Position numbers and translations under genes: made by a program. 63,216 bases of DNA, taken from positions 1 through 63,216 of the forward strand of contig JAAZLS010000009.1 in assembly GCA_012799185.1 (NCBI GenBank). Direction: 5' to 3'. This stretch comes from Bacillota bacterium. GTDB lineage: Bacteria; Bacillota; Dethiobacteria; DTU022. Positions 34,984 to 44,003 of the stretch are shown piece after piece (within the stretch, counting starts at the first letter, position 1; every line of letters begins with the position of its first letter). The notes below the pieces were generated by a model. It was not told the origin of the DNA. It ran no database searches and saw only the letters and a list, made by a program, of their open reading frames with translations.

Positions 34984-36216
34984 TTGCATATGAAGATAAA
35001 GCGTACCCTGATAATAATATTTTCCCTGGTGGTACTGGCCCTTTTAGCCGGCTATCTCCTGGATCTACCCTGGTTTTCCGCTCTTTGGGCATCTACTCCC
35101 GGGCCTCCCCCTCCCATCGAAGAGCCGGAGCCCCCGCCGGAACCGACCCCCGATATACGCACCGCCCGGTTGGTCGCGGCCGGCGATATAATAGTGCATT
35201 TAACCCAGGTCGAACAGGCCTTTGCCGGTGGTAGTTATGATTTTACCCCCAGTTTTAGCTTTATAACTCCTAGCCTGCAATCGGCCGATTTAACAGTAGG
35301 CAATTTTGAGACCGTCCTAGCCGGTCCCGAGCGGGGTTATAGCGGTTATCCCGCCTTTAATACCCCGGATGAACTGGCGCAAAATCTAAAACAGGCCGGG
35401 TTTGATCTCCTCTCTACCGCCAATAACCATAGCCTGGATATGGGCATTAATGGCCTATTTAGAACGATTGACTGTTTGGAAGAGGCCGGCCTGGTCACCT
35501 TCGGCACCTACCGCCAGCCGGAGGAGCGCACGCCCCTGCTGGTGGAGGTAAACGGTATTAATCTATTTTTTACCGCCTATACGGAGTCGACCAACGGTAT
35601 TCCGGTGCCCGACGGGTACGATTACGCCATTAATTATATCCCAAATTTTAATATCCTGGATCCGATTATCAATGAGATAACCGTCGCCCGGGAAAAGGGG
35701 GCCGATCTGGTGATTGTTTACATGCACTGGGGCCACGAATACCACGTGCAACCTACCGATTTTCACCGGGACCTGGCCCGGCAGCTGGCTATAGCCGGGG
35801 CCGATATGATTATTGGTGGCCATCCACATGTAATGCAACCCCTGGAGTGGATCACCGTGGAGACGGATGACGGACCACCGCGGCAAGTGCTGGTCGCCTA
35901 CTCCTTGGGCAATTTTATCTCCAACCAGTTCCACTGGGTCCCTTACATTCCAACCCCCAAGGTCCAGTACGGCCTGCTGCTGGATGTGGAGATTTCCAAG
36001 GATATGGAGAGCGGCCTAACCCGGCTTAGCCGGGCCGACTATGATATCACCTGGGTTCACCGCAACTGGCGCCACCGGATACTGCCTCTCTCAGAGGTCC
36101 TTTCCTCCACTGCGCTGGACCAGTATAATCTTACCGAAGAGGAGCTGAGGGCCATCAAGGCCGAATACGACTGCCTTCGCGAGGAGATATTAGAGAAGTA
36201 TAATTTTAGCGATTAA
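34984..36216 (+). CDS. CapA-family (PGA_cap) metallophosphoesterase-like protein
   Basis: A signal anchor, then VAAGDIIVH, VGNFETVL, STANNHSLDMG, YMHWGHEY and GGHPHV, which are CapA/PgsA motifs. Confidence 0.8.
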   Translation: MHMKIKRTLIIIFSLVVLALLAGYLLDLPWFSALWASTPGPPPPIEEPEPPPEPTPDIRTARLVAAGDIIVHLTQVEQAFAGGSYDFTPSFSFITPSLQSADLTVGNFETVLAGPERGYSGYPAFNTPDELAQNLKQAGFDLLSTANNHSLDMGINGLFRTIDCLEEAGLVTFGTYRQPEERTPLLVEVNGINLFFTAYTESTNGIPVPDGYDYAINYIPNFNILDPIINEITVAREKGADLVIVYMHWGHEYHVQPTDFHRDLARQLAIAGADMIIGGHPHVMQPLEWITVETDDGPPRQVLVAYSLGNFISNQFHWVPYIPTPKVQYGLLLDVEISKDMESGLTRLSRADYDITWVHRNWRHRILPLSEVLSSTALDQYNLTEEELRAIKAEYDCLREEILEKYNFSD

Positions 36217-36245
36217 CCGCAGTCGGAATTAATGAACCGGAGAAG

Positions 36246-37403
36246 ATGATATTGAAAATAGCATTTTTTACCGATAGTTTTCGACCCTATACCAGTGGCG
36301 TCGTTCGTTCAATTGAACTGTTCGCCCGGGAGTTTACAGCCCGGGGCCACGAGGTCTTTATATTCGGTCCCGATTACCCCCTTCTTCACTGTCCTCCCGA
36401 AAAAAAAGTATTCCGCTTTATCTCTATTCCTGCCCCCACCATGCCCGACTTTGCTTTACCGATCCCTATTTCAATTAATTTAGGACCCACTATTCGCCGG
36501 ATTGGACTGGATATTATTCATGTCCATTCACCTTTTCTATTGGGCCGGCTGGGTGCTCGGGCTGCCCGGCGCTATAAACTGCCCCTGGTATTTACCTTCC
36601 ACACCCTCTACGATCAATATGTCCATTACCTTCCCCTCGGTGAGGAACCGGCCCGGCGCCTGGTTCGTTCAATCAGCCGGGATTTTTGCAACAAATACTG
36701 CCGCCTGGTGATTTCCCCCTCCCGAACGGTTGCAAACCACCTTCGTACCTTGGGCGTCAAGGTACCGGTACGGACCATTCCGACCGGAGTAGATCTTAAT
36801 GAATTTAGCAATGCTGATCCCCGGTGGTTAAAAGAGAGCTACAACCTGGATAATAGAAGTAGAGTCCTATTATTTGTAGGCCGCCTGGGAAAAGAGAAAA
36901 ACGTGCCTTTTTTAATCAAGGCCTTTGCCCAAGCCGCCCGCACGGTTCCTAATATTCACCTGGTCCTGGTCGGCAAAGGGCCGTTGAAGAGCCAGCTCCG
37001 CCAGCTGGTCCGGGAATTGGAGCTTGACGGCAAGGTGACTTTCACCGGAATGCTCAACAGGAAAAAGGTAGCCCACTGCTATGCGGGAGCGGATCTATTT
37101 GTTTTTCCATCGGTTACCGAGACCCAGGGGCTGGTTATCGGCGAGGCAAAAACCCGGGGATTGCCAACCATAGCGGTAAAAGCTTTCGGCGCAGCCGAGA
37201 TGGTGAAACACATGGAGGATGGGCTATTAACCGGTCCCTCGATTAACTCCTTCGCCGAAGCGATAATTCAATTGTTGCAAGAAGATCATCTCTATCAAAA
37301 GATGCGTAAAAAGGCCCGCGAAAACGCCACCCTTTACTCCTCCTCCCACTTTGCTGGGCAGATGTTGGCCACCTACAAGGAACTCATCGCGAACCCGGTT
37401 TAA
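36246..37403 (+). CDS. GT4-family glycosyltransferase
   Basis: An N-terminal Glyco_trans_4 segment (FFTDSFRPYTSGV) and a C-terminal GT1 motif (FVFPSVTETQGLVIGEA, the E-x7-E region). Confidence 0.8.
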   Translation: MILKIAFFTDSFRPYTSGVVRSIELFAREFTARGHEVFIFGPDYPLLHCPPEKKVFRFISIPAPTMPDFALPIPISINLGPTIRRIGLDIIHVHSPFLLGRLGARAARRYKLPLVFTFHTLYDQYVHYLPLGEEPARRLVRSISRDFCNKYCRLVISPSRTVANHLRTLGVKVPVRTIPTGVDLNEFSNADPRWLKESYNLDNRSRVLLFVGRLGKEKNVPFLIKAFAQAARTVPNIHLVLVGKGPLKSQLRQLVRELELDGKVTFTGMLNRKKVAHCYAGADLFVFPSVTETQGLVIGEAKTRGLPTIAVKAFGAAEMVKHMEDGLLTGPSINSFAEAIIQLLQEDHLYQKMRKKARENATLYSSSHFAGQMLATYKELIANPV

Positions 37404-37416
37404 TCTACTCCCAGGG

Positions 37417-38853
37417 TTAATTTAACCAAAGCTGTTTCGTCCGTTCGGTAATCGGCCGGTGATAGAACAAAAGTATGGCCGGAATCAACAGAAACAGTAG
37501 ACGCCCGAAGATCGTGTTGGCAAATAAGATCAGTGCGCCCAGCCAGCGGTTCCTACCGCTATAAATACCCCGGATTGCCTCCCTGTCCACGGTTTTAATC
37601 ATGGCCCCGGTTTCGGACAGGGGGGGGTAATTGTCGATATCGACCCGGTATAACCCCTTCTCTATACCGATCACCCGCTCCACATAGGTAACATAGTGTT
37701 CCTCGAATAAAATGATCTGGCCAACTTCAACCTTGTCGTCGGGTTCAATCTGTTTAAAATAAACCAGATCATTGAGCATGATTTCCGGCTCCATGGTAGA
37801 AGACTTAAATATATAGGGAATTGTTCCCCGGAAGGAGACCTCCCTTCCCAGGGTAGAGGCATTAATCGCTAGAATTACCAGATTAAAAGAGAGGGCGGCC
37901 AGGATGAAGAGAATCAAGAACGAAACAGAGGCAACATCGAATATTTTGCGACGACGGGCCTGTCTCTTTCCATTGCCCAAGGCTCTCCCCCGCCCAGTTT
38001 TGGGGTCGATCAATACCACCCGCTCCCCGGGTGTTAGTATCCCATCATAACCGGTATCGGGTAGATAGTAGTACTTGGATATATTGCGGGCCATGACTAT
38101 ACAGACCAGGATAAATACAGAGACAATTGCCGCTGCTGCCGGTAGAAACGGTGAGCGACCGATATCAAATAGGTTGTAGAGATTTTGCATTGCGACCCGG
38201 TTTGACAGGATCGAATAATAGCCCAATTTTATTTTTAGTATTATTAATAGGATAAAGGAGAAGGCAATAAAATAGCGGGCACCGGTTATGGACTTAACAA
38301 AAGTTGAGAGGGTCATGGAGATAATAATCATAATAATGAGATCAATCAACCCGGCTAGGTACAGGGAGGGAAAATAGGCCGGGATCAGGCTATATTTTAA
38401 GAAATATGTCATAAAGGCCGTGAAGAAAAAACCTATGGTGTAAACAAATATTGTTGATAGCAGCAAGGCGGTCAACTTGGAAAAGATCATGGTTAGCGGA
38501 TTATAGCCCATCTTAACCAAGAGGTACCAGGAGTTTTGCTTTATCTCATAAAAAAAGAGGGAGTCATAGTTCAAAATATAGTAAAAGATATTTAAAACCA
38601 GGGCCACGTGGATATAGATATAGAGGGTTGAAAAATAGCTAGGCTGCATAATTTGCGGGATCGCCTCCAGGAGCACACTCTCCCTCAGCGGTTGAGCAGC
38701 AAAGAAAACTGCGAAGGAGATAAGACCTAAAAAGAGAGCAAAGACCACCCTTTGCTTGCTACTGACTATATTTTCCGTATAGCCCTGGCGCAGCTCTTTA
38801 CTAAAATAGCTGTGCTTATAAATCATATTGCCGGTCAATCTCCTCGTAGGCAT
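37417..38853 (-). CDS. polytopic membrane protein fused to a SipW-like (S26B) signal-peptidase domain with substituted catalytic residues
   Basis: About 6 TM segments span residues 35-265, followed by a basic linker, a TM anchor, an S26-like domain (KSSTMEPEIMLNDLVYF...VTYVERVIGI...YRVDIDNYP) and a C-terminal TM. Compared with the neighbouring SipW (SGSMEP / THRII / KGDN), the nucleophile Ser is Thr (ACC, 37795-37797) and the His is Glu (GAG, 37678-37680). An alternative start is the ATG at 38826. Confidence 0.6.
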   Translation of the reverse strand: MPTRRLTGNMIYKHSYFSKELRQGYTENIVSSKQRVVFALFLGLISFAVFFAAQPLRESVLLEAIPQIMQPSYFSTLYIYIHVALVLNIFYYILNYDSLFFYEIKQNSWYLLVKMGYNPLTMIFSKLTALLLSTIFVYTIGFFFTAFMTYFLKYSLIPAYFPSLYLAGLIDLIIMIIISMTLSTFVKSITGARYFIAFSFILLIILKIKLGYYSILSNRVAMQNLYNLFDIGRSPFLPAAAAIVSVFILVCIVMARNISKYYYLPDTGYDGILTPGERVVLIDPKTGRGRALGNGKRQARRRKIFDVASVSFLILFILAALSFNLVILAINASTLGREVSFRGTIPYIFKSSTMEPEIMLNDLVYFKQIEPDDKVEVGQIILFEEHYVTYVERVIGIEKGLYRVDIDNYPPLSETGAMIKTVDREAIRGIYSGRNRWLGALILFANTIFGRLLFLLIPAILLFYHRPITERTKQLWLN

Positions 38854-39814
38854 TTTGAACCGTTTTCGGGTTTACCTTCATGGACCGGGGTGCGAAACCG
38901 CTCCTGATAATATTTTCATAAATTAAATGGGGATCAGTATTATCCTCACCGGGTTCACTAATAAGCAGGCGCCGGCCCTTTAATGTAAAATGGAGTTCGG
39001 GCAGCCGGGGAGCAAGCCGCTCCATAATTTGAGGGGCCTCCGGATCTTCGATTATAAGTAGGATCTTGTCATAGGTCAGGCGCAGCTCCTCTACCGTTCC
39101 TTGGTAGATCATTCTTCCTTCCGCTACGTAAGCCGTGTGGCTGCAGCTTTTTTCAATTAACCGACAATCTTTGCTGCCCATAATAAGGGTCTTCCCTCGC
39201 TCCTTAATCAGAGCGGCAATATGGGCGATCGCTGTAGAGAGCATCCTGTTAAACCGGTATTCGGGAACATTAAAGACAATCATCACGCTCTCCGAATAGG
39301 CGGTAACCAGCAAGGTGACTACTACCTTTTCCTCCCTGGTTAGTCGCGCGATCGGGGTTAGAGAAATAGGCCCCAAGCCAATCGACAACAGCAGCTCGAA
39401 AATCTGTTCCTGCCGGTAAACTGCGCCGCTACCCCTTTTAGCAGTGGCAAACATGAGAAATTCCAACACATTCATATTATCATAAAGCATGGTCGGACCG
39501 CAGATATAGAAAACATGTTCCAAGATCACCCGCTTATTGCGCATCATACCCCGCTCGACCAGGATACAGCGGCCGGCGTGATAAGGTTTAATATTGGCCA
39601 TTACCTCTAGCAATAGCTTGATTTCCAAAAGGGAGCGCCCATAGATACCCCATGATTCCGGCCTTTTAATCACCAGGTTAATATTTTCCAGAACCCGCCG
39701 CGGCCGCTCTCCCCGGGTATGATAATGTTCGATCGAAGAGAGCCCCTCCATAAAGACCACCGTCTCCACGGTATTGAAGCCCGGCTCTAACTGTCTTCTT
39801 ACCGTCCGCTTCAT
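38816..39814 (-). CDS. ABC-ATPase-like protein with degenerate Walker A, signature, Walker B and H-loop (predicted pseudo-ATPase)
   Basis: The overall ABC NBD layout is present (VLENINLVI..PESWGIYG...; ...MIYQGTVEEL), but every catalytic motif is replaced. Walker A reads GIYGRSLLEIK instead of GxxGxGKT. The signature reads LTREEK instead of LSGGQ. Walker B reads VMIVFNVPE instead of hhhhDEP. The H-loop reads GSKD instead of SH. Confidence 0.55.
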   Translation of the reverse strand: MKRTVRRQLEPGFNTVETVVFMEGLSSIEHYHTRGERPRRVLENINLVIKRPESWGIYGRSLLEIKLLLEVMANIKPYHAGRCILVERGMMRNKRVILEHVFYICGPTMLYDNMNVLEFLMFATAKRGSGAVYRQEQIFELLLSIGLGPISLTPIARLTREEKVVVTLLVTAYSESVMIVFNVPEYRFNRMLSTAIAHIAALIKERGKTLIMGSKDCRLIEKSCSHTAYVAEGRMIYQGTVEELRLTYDKILLIIEDPEAPQIMERLAPRLPELHFTLKGRRLLISEPGEDNTDPHLIYENIIRSGFAPRSMKVNPKTVQNAYEEIDRQYDL

Positions 39815-39838: not shown

Positions 39839-40372
39839 TTAAGTAAATGGCATTTTCCATAAAAGTACAGCAATTACCCGGTCGGGGGTAAGCAGTTCCA
39901 GGTCCGGGGAGCTGATCGGATTATCCCCCTTGGTCCGATAGCTGACAGTGCCATCGTCAGCAACTATAACCTCAATAATCCGGTGGGTAATAGTTAAACC
40001 GGACTCGTTCCTAAAGGTAACAATCTCATTTTCCTTAAGTCTAGACGCATCCTTAGGCTTACGGGATAGGATCACCGCCCCCACGGGCAGAGTGGGCTCC
40101 ATGCTCCCCGATTCAATCATGTAGAGCTGGTATCCCAAGAGATCGGGGGTTTTCCCCCGGCTTTTTGCCACCTGGATCGAGACCAGTGCCGCCAGCATTA
40201 AAACAATTACAATCGAAAAAAATACCCGCCCGGTAACCCTGGCCAACCGCGATCTCTCTTTTTTCCGCCGGCCTCGTCTCCCCTTAGCGCGGAATATAGC
40301 CTGGCGCATGGCCTCGATCTGTTCCGGGGTAGTATACTTTGGGTCCTGCATGGCCCCAGGCCCCTCCTCCAT
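39839..40372 (-). CDS. sipW: signal peptidase I, SipW/archaeal-ER type (S26B)
   Basis: A single N-terminal TM, then ESGSMEPTL, ITHRII and TKGDNP, so all catalytic boxes are intact. The start may be the second ATG, 21 nt downstream, which follows GGAGGAGGGG. Confidence 0.8.
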   Translation of the reverse strand: MEEGPGAMQDPKYTTPEQIEAMRQAIFRAKGRRGRRKKERSRLARVTGRVFFSIVIVLMLAALVSIQVAKSRGKTPDLLGYQLYMIESGSMEPTLPVGAVILSRKPKDASRLKENEIVTFRNESGLTITHRIIEVIVADDGTVSYRTKGDNPISSPDLELLTPDRVIAVLLWKMPFT

Positions 40373-40478: not shown

Positions 40479-40498
40479 GCCCACCCTTTAGGGTGGGC
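40479..40498 (-). terminator. hairpin downstream of the TasA-like genes (partial terminator/processing site)
   Basis: The minus-strand RNA reads GCCCACCC-uaaa-GGGUGGGC followed by UACCUCUUUU. The 8-bp GC stem is strong, but the U-tract is interrupted. Confidence 0.5.
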
Positions 40499-40551
40499 GG
40501 GTGTCGCAAATAGATGGTGTCGGCAAGGTTAATCCCCTAGGATCCAGGAAT

Positions 40552-41118
40552 TTAGTCTTCGTCTGTAGCTTCTTGTTGGGTGCCGGTTACCGATACGGTA
40601 ACTGCGCTGCCGTAGTCGGCTCCGGCGTACTGTGCATCCTCACTCATAGTTTGCCCTTCAGGTATTTCATCGGTTCCAAGGGGCCACTCAATCTTTACAT
40701 TGTAGGTTTTTTCCTGGCCAGTTTCAGCCAACGGGAACTCGTCGGTAAATTTGCCGTCGTCATCCAGATTTATGCTTTGGTCCTCCTCATCAGTTACTGA
40801 AACAACCAGGGGTTCTATAGCATCTTTTCCCTCAGCTGCAGCAAGGGTAACTGCAAACTCCAGATCCATGGCGGTTTCGCTAACCAGGGCCTCCTCATAG
40901 TTCTTTACACTAAATTTCCATTCAACAGTGTCACCGGGGGCGATTTTAATATTCTCCTCAAAAGTATTTGTCTCACCCGGCTTTAGGATAAACTCCTTGG
41001 CCACCACGCTGCCCGCGGCCAAGTCATCAATGGTAATCGAGTACGCGGAAAGGGTGCCGGCAATAAGCGAGGTTGTTATTAACAACACCAGGGCCACAAT
41101 CAAAAGTGTTCTTTTCAT
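40552..41118 (-). CDS. TasA/BsaA/camelysin-like exported protein with SipW-type signal peptide
   Basis: The signal peptide is MKRTLLIVALVLLITTSLIAGTLSAYS (compare the GGT.A.F class). The mature part is a beta-rich domain with APGDTVEWKFSVKN and a terminal VTVSVTGTQ (compare TasA FSFEATQ). It is a paralog of the N-domain of the upstream gene, and its ATG overlaps that gene's TGA. Confidence 0.6.
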   Translation of the reverse strand: MKRTLLIVALVLLITTSLIAGTLSAYSITIDDLAAGSVVAKEFILKPGETNTFEENIKIAPGDTVEWKFSVKNYEEALVSETAMDLEFAVTLAAAEGKDAIEPLVVSVTDEEDQSINLDDDGKFTDEFPLAETGQEKTYNVKIEWPLGTDEIPEGQTMSEDAQYAGADYGSAVTVSVTGTQQEATDED

Positions 41119-42053
41119 TTTCTTTCTTCCTCCTTGTTATTCCAACTAGATTTATTAAACTCACAAGTCAAACTAACAGTCTTCCCGTTTACCCAGACAT
41201 CTTTAATCGGTTCTGTTCCTGTTCCGGTCGCCCAACCACCGAAGGATATACTCCCACCCGGTGAAATATTTTTATTATAGTTTATTGGATAATAGTATCT
41301 ATAGGTGCCGGTAGGCAAATTGTCGTGATCCTCTCTGGCCCCAGCCCATATAGCCGTTATTTGATCATTGTCTAATCTAAAGTTGATCTCCCATCCTTCG
41401 ATCGTTTCTTCCATATTATTCGTAATGGTAATCTGAAATTCAAAGTTGCCATCACCCCATACCCGGGTAGCCTCATATAGTACATGGATACCGTCTTGCG
41501 GCACTTCAGGATCGGGGATATCAAAAGGTAGCTGGGAGGCGATGGCGCTGACCCGGATCGTGTTTCCAAGACCTTCTGGACCATTAAGATAATCGTTATT
41601 GCTCCCGTCGGGCCAGTGAATCTCTACCGTATAATCGCACTCTTGCCCTATTGCTGCAAAGAGAAATTCTCCATAAAGGTCAAAGGTCCCGGTACCGGTA
41701 ACGGAATCGAGAACTTTACCTTCGGCATCCTTTACGCTGACGATTAAAGATTCGATGGCACTTTTGCCTTCGGTGGGGGTAACGTGAAAGGTCAACTTAT
41801 AATAGAGGTCAGTTTCGGTGACAAGGTTTCCATCATGGTTTTTTACTTTAAACGGCCAGTTAATGGTCTCGGCAGGCCCGATCGGTTCGTTCATGGCGAA
41901 GGAGTCGGTACCATCACCTAAAAAGATAAATTCTTTCGCTACCGTAGAGCCGTCAGCCAGATCAACGGTAGCCGAATAGGAGGCCAGGGTCCCGGCCAGG
42001 ATGGACCCGGCGATTAACAAGACCAACAGTAAAATAAGTAATAATCTTTTCAT
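41115..42053 (-). CDS. TasA/BsaA-like exported protein fused to a C-terminal CBM2-like carbohydrate-binding module
   Basis: The signal peptide is MKRLLLILLLVLLIAGSILAGTLASYS and the TasA-like domain is shared with the 40552-41118 product. The C-terminal ~110 aa read VLYEATRVWGDGNFEFQITITNN..ETIEGWEINF......ITAIW......NISPGGSISFGGWATG......VWVNGKTVSLTC, which fits the CBM2 pattern (W.GGF...V.V.N....GW...F......W....N..I..G....FGF.......NG..C). Confidence 0.6.
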   Translation of the reverse strand: MKRLLLILLLVLLIAGSILAGTLASYSATVDLADGSTVAKEFIFLGDGTDSFAMNEPIGPAETINWPFKVKNHDGNLVTETDLYYKLTFHVTPTEGKSAIESLIVSVKDAEGKVLDSVTGTGTFDLYGEFLFAAIGQECDYTVEIHWPDGSNNDYLNGPEGLGNTIRVSAIASQLPFDIPDPEVPQDGIHVLYEATRVWGDGNFEFQITITNNMEETIEGWEINFRLDNDQITAIWAGAREDHDNLPTGTYRYYYPINYNKNISPGGSISFGGWATGTGTEPIKDVWVNGKTVSLTCEFNKSSWNNKEEERK

Positions 42054-42062
42054 TGCGCCACC

Positions 42063-42100
42063 TTATTTTTATAAAAAAATTGCCACCTAAAACATGTAGT
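42063..42100 (-). terminator. imperfect hairpin plus U7 overlapping the 3' end of the aptamer candidate (possible expression platform)
   Basis: The minus-strand RNA reads GCCAGUUGACACUACAUGUUUUAGGUGGC-AA-UUUUUUU. The outer GCCA/UGGC and inner CUA/UAG pairs form, but the interior is poorly paired. The 5' arm is shared with the aptamer 3' end. Confidence 0.35.
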
Positions 42101-42172
42101 GTCAACTGGCTATCTCAATTCCCTCCAGGGAACCGGACCCTTTAGTTTTGCGCCGTGGACTCGCGCCCACGT
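42089..42172 (-). promoter_or_regulatory. candidate GEMM-I-like (cyclic-dinucleotide) riboswitch aptamer in leader of the TasA-like operon
   Basis: The minus-strand RNA reads GUGAAAGGCAAC-[GUGGGC-GCGA-GUCCAC]-GGCGCAAAAC-UAAAGGGUCCGGUUCCCUGGAGGGAAUUGAGAUAGCCAGUUGACAC. This echoes the GEMM-I layout GGCAAAC-[hairpin with GNRA loop]-GGACGCAAAGCC...UAGCCAGCUGCC. It deviates at hallmark positions: one A fewer in GGCAAAC, and GGCGC instead of GGACGC. Confidence 0.4.
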
Positions 42173-42272
42173 TGCCTTTCACTCGAGGAATTTTATTTTA
42201 TTGATACAATAGTATTGCATAAAATTCCTACCGTGTCAACGCTAGAATTAATTATTGGAAGATTCGCCCGGC

Positions 42273-43076
42273 TTATCGGCCCTTGGCCAGGAGCAGGCGA
42301 TCCTGCTGTAGCTCCTCTCCGCTGGCTTCATAGAACATATCTACCAGGTCGCTAACGGTCAGGTTCTTCCGATCGGGGCCGGAAACATCTAGAATAATTT
42401 TTCCTTCATGCATCATAATCGTCCGGTGGCCCATTTTAAGGGCTTGTTCCATATTGTGGGTGACCATCAGGGTGGTGATCCCCTGGTTTTCGATTAGCTT
42501 TTCGGTTAGCTCCAAGACCGTGTTGGCGGTTTTAGGATCTAGGGAGGCGGTATGTTCATCCAGCAAAGCCAGCTTAGGTTCCTTCAGGGTGGTCATCAGC
42601 AAGGCCAGGGCCTGTCTCTGTCCCCCCGAGAGCAACTTGACCGGTGAGTTTAATCTTTCCTCAAGCCCCAACTGAAGGCTTAACAGCCGCTCTTGGAAAA
42701 AAACCCGGTTAGAGTCGGCAATAGCCCAGCGCAGCCGACGCTTATCTCCCCGGCGAAGGGCCAGGGCCAAATTTTCCTCTACAGTTAGGGAGGCAGCGGT
42801 ACCCACCATCGGATCTTGAAATACGTGACAAATAGAGGCCGCCCTCCTGTAATCAGGGAGGCGGGTTACCTCCTCACCGTTTAAACTAACCGTCCCTTCC
42901 TCTGCTTGGTAGATACCGGCAATGCATTTCAACAGTGTTGATTTACCGGCCCCGTTACCGCCAATAATAGTGGTGAACTGCCCTTTTTCCAGGGAGAGGC
43001 TAACCCTATCCAGGGCCACCCTTTCATTTATGCTTCCTGGGTAAAAAATTTTAGTTAACGATTTTACATTTAACAT
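42273..43076 (-). CDS. ABC transporter ATP-binding protein (COG1101-type)
   Basis: Intact Walker A GGNGAGKST, signature LSGGQRQ, Walker B LALLDEHT and H-loop VTHN. Confidence 0.88.
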   Translation of the reverse strand: MLNVKSLTKIFYPGSINERVALDRVSLSLEKGQFTTIIGGNGAGKSTLLKCIAGIYQAEEGTVSLNGEEVTRLPDYRRAASICHVFQDPMVGTAASLTVEENLALALRRGDKRRLRWAIADSNRVFFQERLLSLQLGLEERLNSPVKLLSGGQRQALALLMTTLKEPKLALLDEHTASLDPKTANTVLELTEKLIENQGITTLMVTHNMEQALKMGHRTIMMHEGKIILDVSGPDRKNLTVSDLVDMFYEASGEELQQDRLLLAKGR

Positions 43077-43103
43077 TACTTGAAACCTCGCTCTTAATAA
43101 TGG

Positions 43104-44003
43104 CTACGCTGATAGCCTCTTGCTACCGGCATTGGCCTGGAATTTTTTACTTAGCTCAGGGGCAATCAATGCCAGCGTAACCAGAAGGGCAGTAAACAGG
43201 CGTAAATCCGTATGTTCGATAAAACCCAACCTTAACACGAGGGCAATCGCCAGCCGATAGACTACGGAACCAAAGACAACCGCTACTACTTTTCCCAGGA
43301 TTGATTTAACCCCAAAGAGGACCTCGCCGATGATTACCGAGGCCAGGCCGACAATAATGGTCCCGATTCCCATATTCACATCGGCAAAACCCTGGTACTG
43401 GGCAATCATCGCCCCGGAGAGGGCGACCAGGGCATTGGAGAGGCTTAATCCTAAGATCTTCATGTTATCGGTGTTCACGCCCTGGCTGCGCATCATAATC
43501 TCATTGTCACCGGTGGCCCGTACCGCCAGCCCACTTTCAGTATGGAGGAAACTATAAAGTAATAACACCAGGATTACCACTACGACACCGGCAGCAAGAT
43601 ATTCACCGGTGCGGGCGGATAGGCCGCCTAAACTAAAGTAATCGTAAACCGTTGTTGCCCGAAGCAGGGAGATGTTGGGGCTATTCATGATCCGCAAGTT
43701 AATCGAATAGAGACCGATCGAGGTTAATATACCTGAAAGCAACGGCGTAATTGAAAACTTGGTATGGAGGATACCGGTAATTAAACCGGCTACCGCCCCC
43801 AACAAGGGTGCGACCAGGGTAGCTAGAAAAGGGTTGGTCCCGGTGGCAATTAAAGAAGCGGTGATGGCTGCCCCCAGGGGCAGGCTGCCATCAACCGTCA
43901 AATCAGCATAATTTAAAACACGGAAAGTTAAAAAAACCCCTAAAACCATGATTGCATACAGCAATCCTAATAATATGGCTCCATGTATTACCACTGCGGA
44001 CAC
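43104..44003 (-). CDS. ABC transporter permease (COG4120-type)
   Basis: A 299-aa polytopic membrane protein of the branched-chain-type permease fold, in an operon with the ATPase and binding protein. Confidence 0.8.
   Translation of the reverse strand: MSAVVIHGAILLGLLYAIMVLGVFLTFRVLNYADLTVDGSLPLGAAITASLIATGTNPFLATLVAPLLGAVAGLITGILHTKFSITPLLSGILTSIGLYSINLRIMNSPNISLLRATTVYDYFSLGGLSARTGEYLAAGVVVVILVLLLYSFLHTESGLAVRATGDNEIMMRSQGVNTDNMKILGLSLSNALVALSGAMIAQYQGFADVNMGIGTIIVGLASVIIGEVLFGVKSILGKVVAVVFGSVVYRLAIALVLRLGFIEHTDLRLFTALLVTLALIAPELSKKFQANAGSKRLSA

Follow-up and report, generated by a model that had tools for sequence, protein, structure and literature searches.

A conserved Clostridia family of ABC nucleotide-binding-domain homologs lacking the catalytic motifs, encoded with a signal-peptidase-like membrane protein and SipW

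A 63,216-nucleotide stretch of a Bacillota genome (contig JAAZLS010000009.1 of assembly GCA_012799185.1, here called the window) encodes a 332-residue homolog of the nucleotide-binding domains (NBDs) of ATP-binding cassette (ABC) transporters, in which the catalytic motifs have all been replaced. The gene (38816–39814) lies on the minus strand, as do all other features described below unless otherwise noted, and its motif losses are shared by an entire family found at 71 loci, which represent one genome per species scanned and all fall within the Clostridia. At nearly all of these loci, the NBD-like gene is coupled to that of a multi-spanning membrane protein, hereafter the partner, which bears an outer domain resembling a signal peptidase of the SipW type, and the pair is generally preceded by genes encoding an intact SipW and its presumed secreted cargo. 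Our preferred explanation, held with slightly better than even confidence, is that the NBD-like protein acts as a non-catalytic subunit of an energy-independent membrane platform, which would aid the SipW-dependent processing, assembly, or anchoring of the cargo.

The protein is a true homolog of ABC NBDs, as the similarity is far beyond chance. Direct matches in the PDB include YbbA (9ge6_B, E = 5.6e-8) and TM0544 (1vpl_A, 1.4e-5), with Rv1218c being aligned as well, and the NCBIfam models of YbbA and GldA yielded E-values of 1.2e-7 and 1.4e-7, respectively, the latter covering model positions 43–300 of 301. The NCBIfam scores are below the curated threshold (31 bits versus cut-offs of 336–403), and a Pfam scan returned no match to PF00005 or any other Pfam family even at E ≤ 1. 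Similarly, just one of 29 relatives matches PF00005 at E ≤ 0.01. When these 29 relatives were combined into a profile, it detected 71 distinct NBD sequences in the PDB at E ≤ 1e-3, the best of which was again 1vpl_A (7.4e-14), and it aligned the C-terminal domain of the protein to PmtC (6xjh_C). A comparable result was obtained from structure prediction, which had been proposed as a check in a preliminary description made from the sequence alone. The AlphaFold2 (AF2) model, for which the family alignment served as input, exhibits a RecA-like core, a helical subdomain, and a C-terminal domain (pLDDT 89.2, pTM 0.85), and when it was searched with Foldseek, over 1000 NBD chains were matched at a probability of 1.00, with E = 8e-16 and TMq values reaching 0.74. 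The top fold matches were ABCA4 (TMq 0.74) and ABCA1 (TMq 0.73), and the others included NosF from NosDFY (7o0y_B; TMq 0.64, TMt 0.70, probability 1.00) as well as TM_1403, PmtC, and YbbA, likewise at probability 1.00. As the fold alignments with ABCA4, NosF, and TM_1403 span 320–333 columns, the C-terminal domain is included within the matched region.

The same preliminary description had recognized the motif order of an NBD in this open reading frame (ORF), beginning from the lead-in strand VLENINLVI (residues 41–49) and ending with a C-terminal extension of about 90 residues, and it had considered each catalytic motif to be replaced. Its reading is borne out at every motif, since alignments to PDB structures and profiles place the individual strings upon the corresponding NBD motifs, and the intact ORF consists of an NBD core followed by a C-terminal domain of approximately 88 residues (38819–39082) that is covered by the fold matches to ABCA4 and NosF. 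At the Walker A position, the protein encodes GIYGRSLLEIK (residues 56–66, 39617–39649; WGIxGRSxFEIK in the family), which indeed lacks GK[ST]. The alignments refine this assignment by setting G59-R-S-L-L-E-I-K66 upon GxxGxGK[ST], such that the lysine position is occupied by Ile65 and Lys66 falls upon the Ser/Thr position. GK[ST] is found in none of the 71 loci and in none of the 29 aligned proteins, the lysine position being Ile or Val. In the AF2 model, the helix after the P-loop begins at residue 62, just two residues past the strand formed by residues 54–59, and this early helix start leaves no glycine-rich phosphate-binding loop.

The remaining motifs are no better preserved. The Q-loop region reads HVFYICGPT (39491–39517), and the family alignments reveal that its glutamine is replaced by a near-invariant Gly105 (FYIG). 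This region opens a strongly conserved block that continues into the helical subdomain, with the best-conserved stretch of the entire family (HVFYIG...MLYxNMNVLEFLMFA) corresponding to the Q-loop plus the first helix of that subdomain. The signature position reads LTREEK (residues 158–163, 39326–39343; LT[KR]EEK in the family) and aligns upon LSGGQ[RK], while the Walker B position reads MIVFNVPE (residues 178–185, 39260–39283; IVFN[LVF]PE in the family) and aligns upon hhhhDEPT, with Asn-Val in place of Asp-Glu. Asn182 and Pro184 are invariant in the 29-sequence alignment, in which the catalytic glutamate position is Val, Leu, or Phe; across the 71 loci, Asn182 is predominant, and Ser, Asp, or Glu occurs at a few divergent loci. 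Lastly, the H-loop position reads GSKD (residues 213–216, 39167–39178), in which Lys215 stands at the switch histidine, a position that is variable in the family (K/R/Q/T/C/N and others). A shift of register that might restore Walker A or Walker B was sought in three independent alignments and none was found; in the per-motif inspection, which was performed with PDB and NCBIfam alignments because PF00005 gives no match, neither Walker motif is intact. Judged by its sequence, the protein fails six of the features that define the ABC ATPase family, and the appropriate name for it is NBD-like pseudo-ATPase, rather than “ATP-binding protein”.

It is conceivable that Lys66, Arg60, and Lys94 could support a cryptic, non-canonical binding or hydrolysis of ATP and thereby drive the transport of cargo or of a small molecule. 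The NBD fold is kept at high confidence, Lys66 is conserved as Lys or Arg just one position past that of the Walker A lysine, and the D-loop aspartate is mostly kept in the family. Even so, we consider this possibility very unlikely, given that the modeled helix begins too early for a glycine-rich loop, the catalytic glutamate, Q-loop glutamine, LSGGQ, and a conserved switch histidine are missing from 71/71 loci, the Walker B position is an asparagine that is invariant among the 29 aligned sequences and predominant elsewhere, and Pfam ABC_tran does not recognize the protein.

The loss of motifs is a property of the family as a whole, rather than of the window protein alone. A word-indexed search yielded 143 relatives of 320–350 residues sharing 45–63% identity, which are encoded by Desulfosporosinus, Desulfitobacterium, Dehalobacter, Oxobacter, Anaerobacterium, Gracilibacter, and many metagenome-assembled genomes and are mostly named either “hypothetical” or “ABC-2 type transport system ATP-binding protein”. 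Conservation of the degenerate motifs in homologs had been suggested as another check, and it is evident in 29/29 aligned homologs as well as 71/71 loci: all 71 proteins, including the most divergent (31–38% identity), lack GK[ST], LSGGQ, Asp-Glu, and a conserved switch histidine. An exhaustive HMMER search of 1.84 billion representative sequences recovered about 110 clusters (50% identity) at E ≤ 1e-30, below which additional dead branches appear, followed from approximately 1e-21 downward by canonical ABC-2 NBDs possessing both GPNGAGKTT and the C-terminal domain. Less degenerate intermediates were sought among the 31–38% relatives and in the 1.84-billion library, but none were found, and a score gap separates roughly 1e-28 from 1e-21. 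From this ranking of dead branches ahead of canonical NBDs, the family emerges as a distinct and wholly dead offshoot of ABC-2-type NBDs. One sub-branch (P0355, P0357, P0359, P0364, and P0369) is fused to N-terminal regions of 350–1170 residues, which are of low complexity, abound in Q, P, E, and A, and are disordered-looking. Literature searches yielded no account of this family, of fully dead bacterial NBDs, or of a SipW module such as the one described below.

Despite its degeneracy, the family is under purifying selection. The 29-sequence alignment contains 27 invariant columns, many of which are located away from the former ATP site, including W55, N74, Y78, K94, H100, H226, and D249. When identity to the window proteins was averaged across 58 loci, the NBD-like protein reached 49.7%, compared with 50.5% in the partner, 48.9% in SipW, and 50.1% in the cargo, and from these nearly equal values it follows that the dead NBD is as constrained as the intact SipW adjoining it. 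The gene is also transcribed, as metatranscriptome assemblies from biogas fermenters contain fragments of it (39041–39299 and 39126–39286, depth 3–5), and the source organism is recurrent in anaerobic-digester metagenomes. The loss of every catalytic motif could by itself be taken to indicate the non-functional relic of a decayed transporter gene, yet the ORF is intact in 71 species-level genomes, its divergence equals that of its neighbors, about 110 clusters exist, the coupling to the partner is conserved, and transcripts are detected. Together with the 27 invariant residues, this conservation effectively refutes the relic explanation, to which we assign a practically negligible likelihood.

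Another key feature of the family is its linkage to the partner gene (37417–38826), which encodes 469 residues comprising a conserved amphipathic N-terminal helix, a domain of six transmembrane (TM) segments (38068–38826), a linker, and a SipW-like domain that has a TM anchor as well as a C-terminal TM segment (37417–37956). The long form of this ORF extends over 37417–38853, and an alignment of 21 homologs identifies the invariant M10 (MIYxxSYFxKELRQxY) as its true start. The overlap of the NBD-like stop codon with the start region of this gene had already been noticed in the window, and it is now evident that this arrangement is present at 67 of 68 loci. In the window, the coupling junction (38816–38845) includes GAGGAG at 38840–38845, the partner ATG at 38826–38824, and the TAA of the NBD-like gene at 38818–38816, yielding an overlap of 11 nucleotides with the GAGGAG located 13 nucleotides upstream of the ATG. 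Across these 67 loci, the overlap measures 11–59 nucleotides and AGGAG lies 13–14 nucleotides upstream of the partner ATG, and this combination of overlap and internal Shine-Dalgarno sequence indicates that translational coupling is a conserved trait. The partner Shine-Dalgarno sequence is itself part of the NBD-like reading frame, where it falls within conserved YEE[IL] codons, and the codons for the near-invariant C-terminal NAYEE[IL] (38840–38854) are therefore under a dual constraint.

The structural model of the partner, which is of moderate quality (pLDDT 69.8, with 80–90 in the first membrane domain), begins with six N-terminal helices, and these are followed by a disordered linker, a TM anchor, an outer domain rich in beta structure, and the C-terminal TM segment. 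The C-terminal part weakly matches the SipW model NF046067 (2.9e-8), and Foldseek relates the outer domain to SEC11C (7p2q_A), SpsB, and Streptococcus pyogenes SipA (4n31, E = 0.02). Database sources name its relatives “S26 family signal peptidase”. Upon alignment with the SipW of the window, however, the nucleophilic serine is replaced by threonine and the histidine by glutamate, and only the aspartate of this triad is retained. The threonine is found in 68 of 69 partners, the histidine position is mostly glutamate, and the aspartate of VDIDN is strongly conserved, the single serine exception being the partner of locus L002 (SSSMEP). Based upon the Thr and Glu substitutions, the partner is by the usual criteria a pseudo-peptidase, although the conservation of Thr, Glu, and Asp leaves a small doubt. 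Among the cytoplasmic elements of the partner, conservation is highest in the N-terminal helix and in the SEIRKNSWYLL loop that follows TM2. Two loci (L048 and L053) encode the NBD-like/partner pair with no SipW or cargo detectable within 8 kb upstream, and their partners are also the most divergent (26–34% identity).

That small doubt could be developed into a different explanation, in which the partner would be an active peptidase with an unusual Thr/Glu/Asp arrangement, for instance serving a second site in the cargo, and the dead NBD would be its cytoplasmic stabilizer. Conservation of the threonine in all but one partner, together with that of the glutamate and of the aspartate in VDIDN, argues for selection, and the L002 relative retains serine. 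On the other hand, Ser-to-Thr and His-to-Glu changes abolish activity in characterized S26 enzymes, the SipW encoded next to it is intact at 67/67 loci, and the precedent of SipA illustrates that non-catalytic homologs can be essential (PMC4049620). An active partner consequently strikes us as improbable.

The wider context, which was not part of the preliminary description, consists of SipW, its secreted cargo, and a cyclic di-GMP (c-di-GMP) riboswitch. Using tblastn, a nearly invariant gene order could be observed across the 71 loci: CBM2 cargo, cargo, SipW, NBD-like protein, and partner. Unsupervised clustering of the ORFs around these loci identified only four conserved families, namely the cargo (63 loci), SipW (66 loci), the NBD-like protein (71 loci), and the partner (68 loci), and among the clustered ORFs no second NBD or active ATPase, sortase, or regulator was conserved around the module. 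In the window, SipW (39839–40372; 177 residues) is a signal peptidase I of the endoplasmic reticulum (ER)/archaeal type, which is supported by matches to NF046067 (1.1e-28), TIGR02228 (3.5e-20), and PF10502. Its Ser, His, and Asp residues align with those of SEC11C, and SGSMEP, VTHRI, and KGDN are intact in 67/67 neighboring SipW proteins. SipW also has a cytoplasmic N-terminal tail of about 45 residues, in which KYTTxEQIExMRxEI (residues 12–26) is conserved at 67 loci and is followed by a basic stretch. Possibly, this motif serves as a docking peptide, for which the dead NBD would be one conceivable receptor.

Upstream of sipW are the genes for two secreted proteins. The larger (41115–42053; 312 residues), whose gene is found upstream of SipW at most loci, contains a signal peptide resembling the SipW type, an immunoglobulin-like module, and a C-terminal CBM2 (PF00553, 2.9e-12), and its N-terminal module aligns with the 188-residue paralog encoded next to it, including an invariant G-T-x-x-x-Y past the hydrophobic core. 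The paralog (40552–41118) has a signal peptide of similar appearance, based upon the family alignment, ends in VTGTQQEATDED, lacks LPXTG, and is a candidate major subunit. Relatives of these cargo proteins have been automatically named “SipW-cognate class signal peptide”, “Alternate signal-mediated exported protein”, and “Camelysin metallo-endopeptidase”. The cognate_SipW model TIGR04088 scored 11.1 bits on the 312-residue protein (cut-off 19, E = 0.36), and the other marginal cargo matches were an S-layer Sap domain (0.0033) and TIGR04090 (0.22).

The operon leader contains a c-di-GMP-I riboswitch aptamer at 42098–42186 (RF01051, 46.4 bits versus a gathering cut-off of 35, E = 8.4e-7, model positions 1–87), and RF01051 was also detected, sometimes in tandem, upstream of the cargo genes at 5 of 16 other loci scanned (L002, L018, L036, L037, and L049). 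Metatranscriptome contigs start upstream of the riboswitch at 42228. Between the 188-residue gene and sipW, there is a strong terminator-like hairpin (40479–40498), in which an 8-bp stem containing 7 GC pairs precedes a T-run, and transcript contig X28 stops nearby at 40507. Contig depth, which is a crude measure of expression, is 14–48 over 40507–42228 versus 3–7 downstream, i.e. an approximately 5- to 10-fold drop, and the 188-residue cargo gene exhibits the highest depth in the operon. This suggests that the hairpin is an attenuator, which would keep the subunits plentiful relative to the machinery.

Directly upstream of the riboswitch, an intact NBD gene (42273–43076; PF00005, 6.6e-29) and a 299-residue permease-like ORF constitute an unrelated, importer-like ABC system (42273–44003), with the canonical NBD gene located 2.5 kb upstream of the NBD-like gene. 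This pair is not conserved beside the module at other loci. Its presence raises the question of whether the dead NBD could be the silent half of a heterodimeric ABC protein, in which an active NBD from elsewhere would pair with it upon the partner. Degenerate sites are common in heterodimeric exporters (reviewed in PMC7756269). A heterodimer is nevertheless disfavored here and seems to us most improbable, not only due to the separate nature of the upstream pair, but also because the 71 loci have no second conserved NBD and the signature of the degenerate subunit has been lost as well. A consensus composite site needs precisely this signature, and its loss means that neither composite site could be canonical. 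On the opposite side of the module, two convergent ORFs of 410 and 385 residues (34984–37403, plus strand) end 13 nucleotides from the partner stop codon, with no terminator-like site detected in the interval that separates them from it. The plus strand of 38816–39814 was likewise considered as a coding strand and rejected, as it contains only a 54-residue ORF, and no Rfam family matches within the interval.

The preliminary description had suggested a structural or regulatory role instead of that of a transporter motor, and each of its checks at the level of sequence and fold turned out in its favor. From the conserved features of the module, the proposed platform can be envisioned in some detail. 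The NBD-like protein would be a dead descendant of an ABC-2-type NBD that neither binds nor hydrolyzes ATP, and its translational coupling would set a fixed ratio to the partner. Presumably, it docks on the cytoplasmic face of the partner in the same manner that NBDs dock on ABC-2 permeases, with the groove formed by its Q-loop and helical subdomain contacting the N-terminal helix and the TM2–TM3 loop of the partner. The pair might then constitute a degenerate ABC-2-like platform that is energy-independent and either static or ligand-modulated. Its outer Thr/Glu domain would hold on to the two cargo proteins by their SipW-type signal peptide or N-terminal segment while leaving them uncut, and the platform would aid their hand-over to the intact SipW as well as their assembly or anchoring on the cell surface. 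The module as a whole may represent a c-di-GMP-riboswitch-controlled adhesion or matrix system. There is a precedent for such a platform in SipA of S. pyogenes, which has no catalytic residues, yet is indispensable for the assembly of pili, and which has been proposed to hold the signal-peptide region or to order assembly for streptococcal pili (PMC4049620).

Several observations weigh against this proposal. The contact between the NBD-like protein and the partner is deduced from gene coupling, co-occurrence, and analogy, and the invariant Thr, Glu, and Asp of the partner could signify an unusual activity instead of none. The link between the partner TM domain and ABC-2 permeases is likewise weak. 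The best non-peptidase fold matches, obtained with Foldseek from a model with a pLDDT of 70, are the membrane domains of ABCG5/G8, aligned over 258 columns at E = 0.097, and of NosY, aligned over 265 columns at E = 0.21 (TMt 0.52), and no sequence link to ABC-2 permeases was found when 21 members were scanned with Pfam (1/21, E = 0.11). A profile of this TM domain likewise yielded nothing significant against the PDB or against all ORFs of the 71 loci and the window. Finally, no significant TasA, camelysin, or BsaA match to the cargo was obtained from Pfam, NCBIfam, or a PDB profile search, and the SipW dependence of the cargo derives from gene order, the resemblance of the signal peptides, and automatic source names.

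The conservation away from the former ATP site also permits an alternative, in which the dead NBD would be an inside-out regulatory sensor. A ligand in the cytoplasm, for example c-di-GMP or a different nucleotide signal, would bind at the C-terminal domain or at the conserved basic block ERGMMRxKR, and the signal would pass via the membrane domain to the outer pseudo-peptidase, which would then gate the access of SipW to the cargo, analogous to the manner in which LapD controls LapG. According to the fold matches, the C-terminal domain is similar to the domains with a regulatory role in ABCA, NosF, and MetN-type NBDs, and the family-invariant W55, K94, H100, H226, and D249 are all outside of the former ATP site. 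Furthermore, the operon is preceded by c-di-GMP riboswitches, c-di-GMP systems often have a protein receptor as well, and the conserved cytoplasmic motif of SipW needs a binding partner. Conversely, no known ligand-binding motif was identified, the R88 of an apparent RxxxR is not invariant, and the riboswitch is present at only 6 of 17 loci examined. We therefore view a sensor, along with its suggested ligand site, as unlikely. Somewhat less likely still is a more specific version, in which the dead NBD would be an input domain binding either a second messenger, with c-di-GMP as the candidate, or the SipW tail, and would act via the ABC-like membrane domain to make the outer domain either sequester or release the signal peptide. 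If correct, two pseudoenzymes, one derived from an ATPase and the other from a peptidase, would together make up a LapD/LapG-like checkpoint, and this would represent a hitherto unrecognized class of accessory machinery for SipW-dependent surface fibers in the Clostridia.

Returning to the energy-independent platform, several implications can be considered. Firstly, the family marks an unstudied five-gene module that is c-di-GMP-regulated in several lineages and whose products probably form surface or matrix structures with an affinity for cellulose, both in Firmicutes of anaerobic digesters and in dehalogenating ones. Given the CBM2 in the cargo and the presence of the organism in biogas and anaerobic-digester metagenomes, attachment to plant biomass may follow. 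Secondly, the module provides a handle on the assembly or anchoring of SipW cargo where TapA is absent. Thirdly, what appears to be new is a fully dead, standalone NBD family that, together with a pseudo-signal-peptidase, was presumably recruited into a module for the maturation or assembly of secreted proteins. Both this pairing of two pseudoenzymes and its strict conservation would surprise specialists, and on the present evidence database names such as “ABC transporter ATP-binding protein” for the family, as well as the peptidase names of the partner, are functionally misleading.

When compared with known systems, the module shares individual features with several of them. Like SipA, the outer domain of the partner has the fold of a signal peptidase, has lost its catalytic dyad, and is encoded in a cluster with the subunits of a secreted surface structure. 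However, SipA derives from signal peptidases with the bacterial Ser/Lys arrangement, is a free-standing protein, and acts together with sortases and LPXTG pilins, whereas the partner domain is of the SipW type (ER/archaeal, Ser/His/Asp), is fused to six TM segments, and is paired with a dead NBD. Unlike the SipA/LepA pilus clusters, no sortase is conserved near the module and LPXTG is missing from the 188-residue cargo. The matrix operons tapA-sipW-tasA of Bacillus subtilis, sipW-tasA-calY of B. cereus, and sipW-bsaA of Clostridium perfringens encode a dedicated SipW with its cargo, as this module probably does, and the c-di-GMP riboswitch suggests a comparable biofilm or adhesion context. In contrast to operons of the tapA-sipW-tasA type, the module encodes no TapA, and its cargo has no significant match to TasA, camelysin, or BsaA. 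To our knowledge, the genes for the NBD-like protein and for the TM-domain pseudo-SipW have no counterpart in such matrix operons.

ABC-like complexes that are partners or regulators of hydrolases offer a further parallel, as in EcsAB with RasP (9a6w) and FtsEX with cell-wall hydrolases, and EcsA is found at rank 46 among the fold matches of the NBD-like protein. EcsA and FtsE are active ATPases whose function is ATP-dependent. By comparison, the NBD-like protein would be unable to use an ATP mechanism, judging from its motifs. The closest resemblance is to the NBDs of ABC-2/type V systems (NosF, the NBD and R-domain of ABCA1/3/4/7, TM_1403, TM0544, PmtC, GldA, and YbbA), which have the same fold, including the C-terminal domain, exhibit detectable sequence homology, and are the nearest sequences outside of the family in the 1.84-billion library. 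As in these systems, the gene is located immediately upstream of, and coupled to, that of a polytopic membrane protein, but all motifs have been lost and the partner is unrecognizable by sequence as an ABC-2 permease and bears a peptidase-like domain. The degenerate sites of heterodimeric ABC proteins (TM287/288, PatAB, CFTR NBD1, and ABCG5/G8) likewise involve an NBD that has lost catalytic residues and yet stays part of the structure of a membrane complex. Known examples keep Walker A, still bind ATP at the degenerate site, and always have a competent sister site (reviewed in PMC7756269). The NBD-like protein differs in that both halves of the composite site, Walker A/B and the signature, have been lost and no second NBD is conserved with it. 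ABC NBDs are regarded as obligate ATP motors, and a family that is standalone, has lost all of its catalytic motifs, and is strictly conserved would be a clear case of an ABC scaffold kept for a non-energetic purpose.

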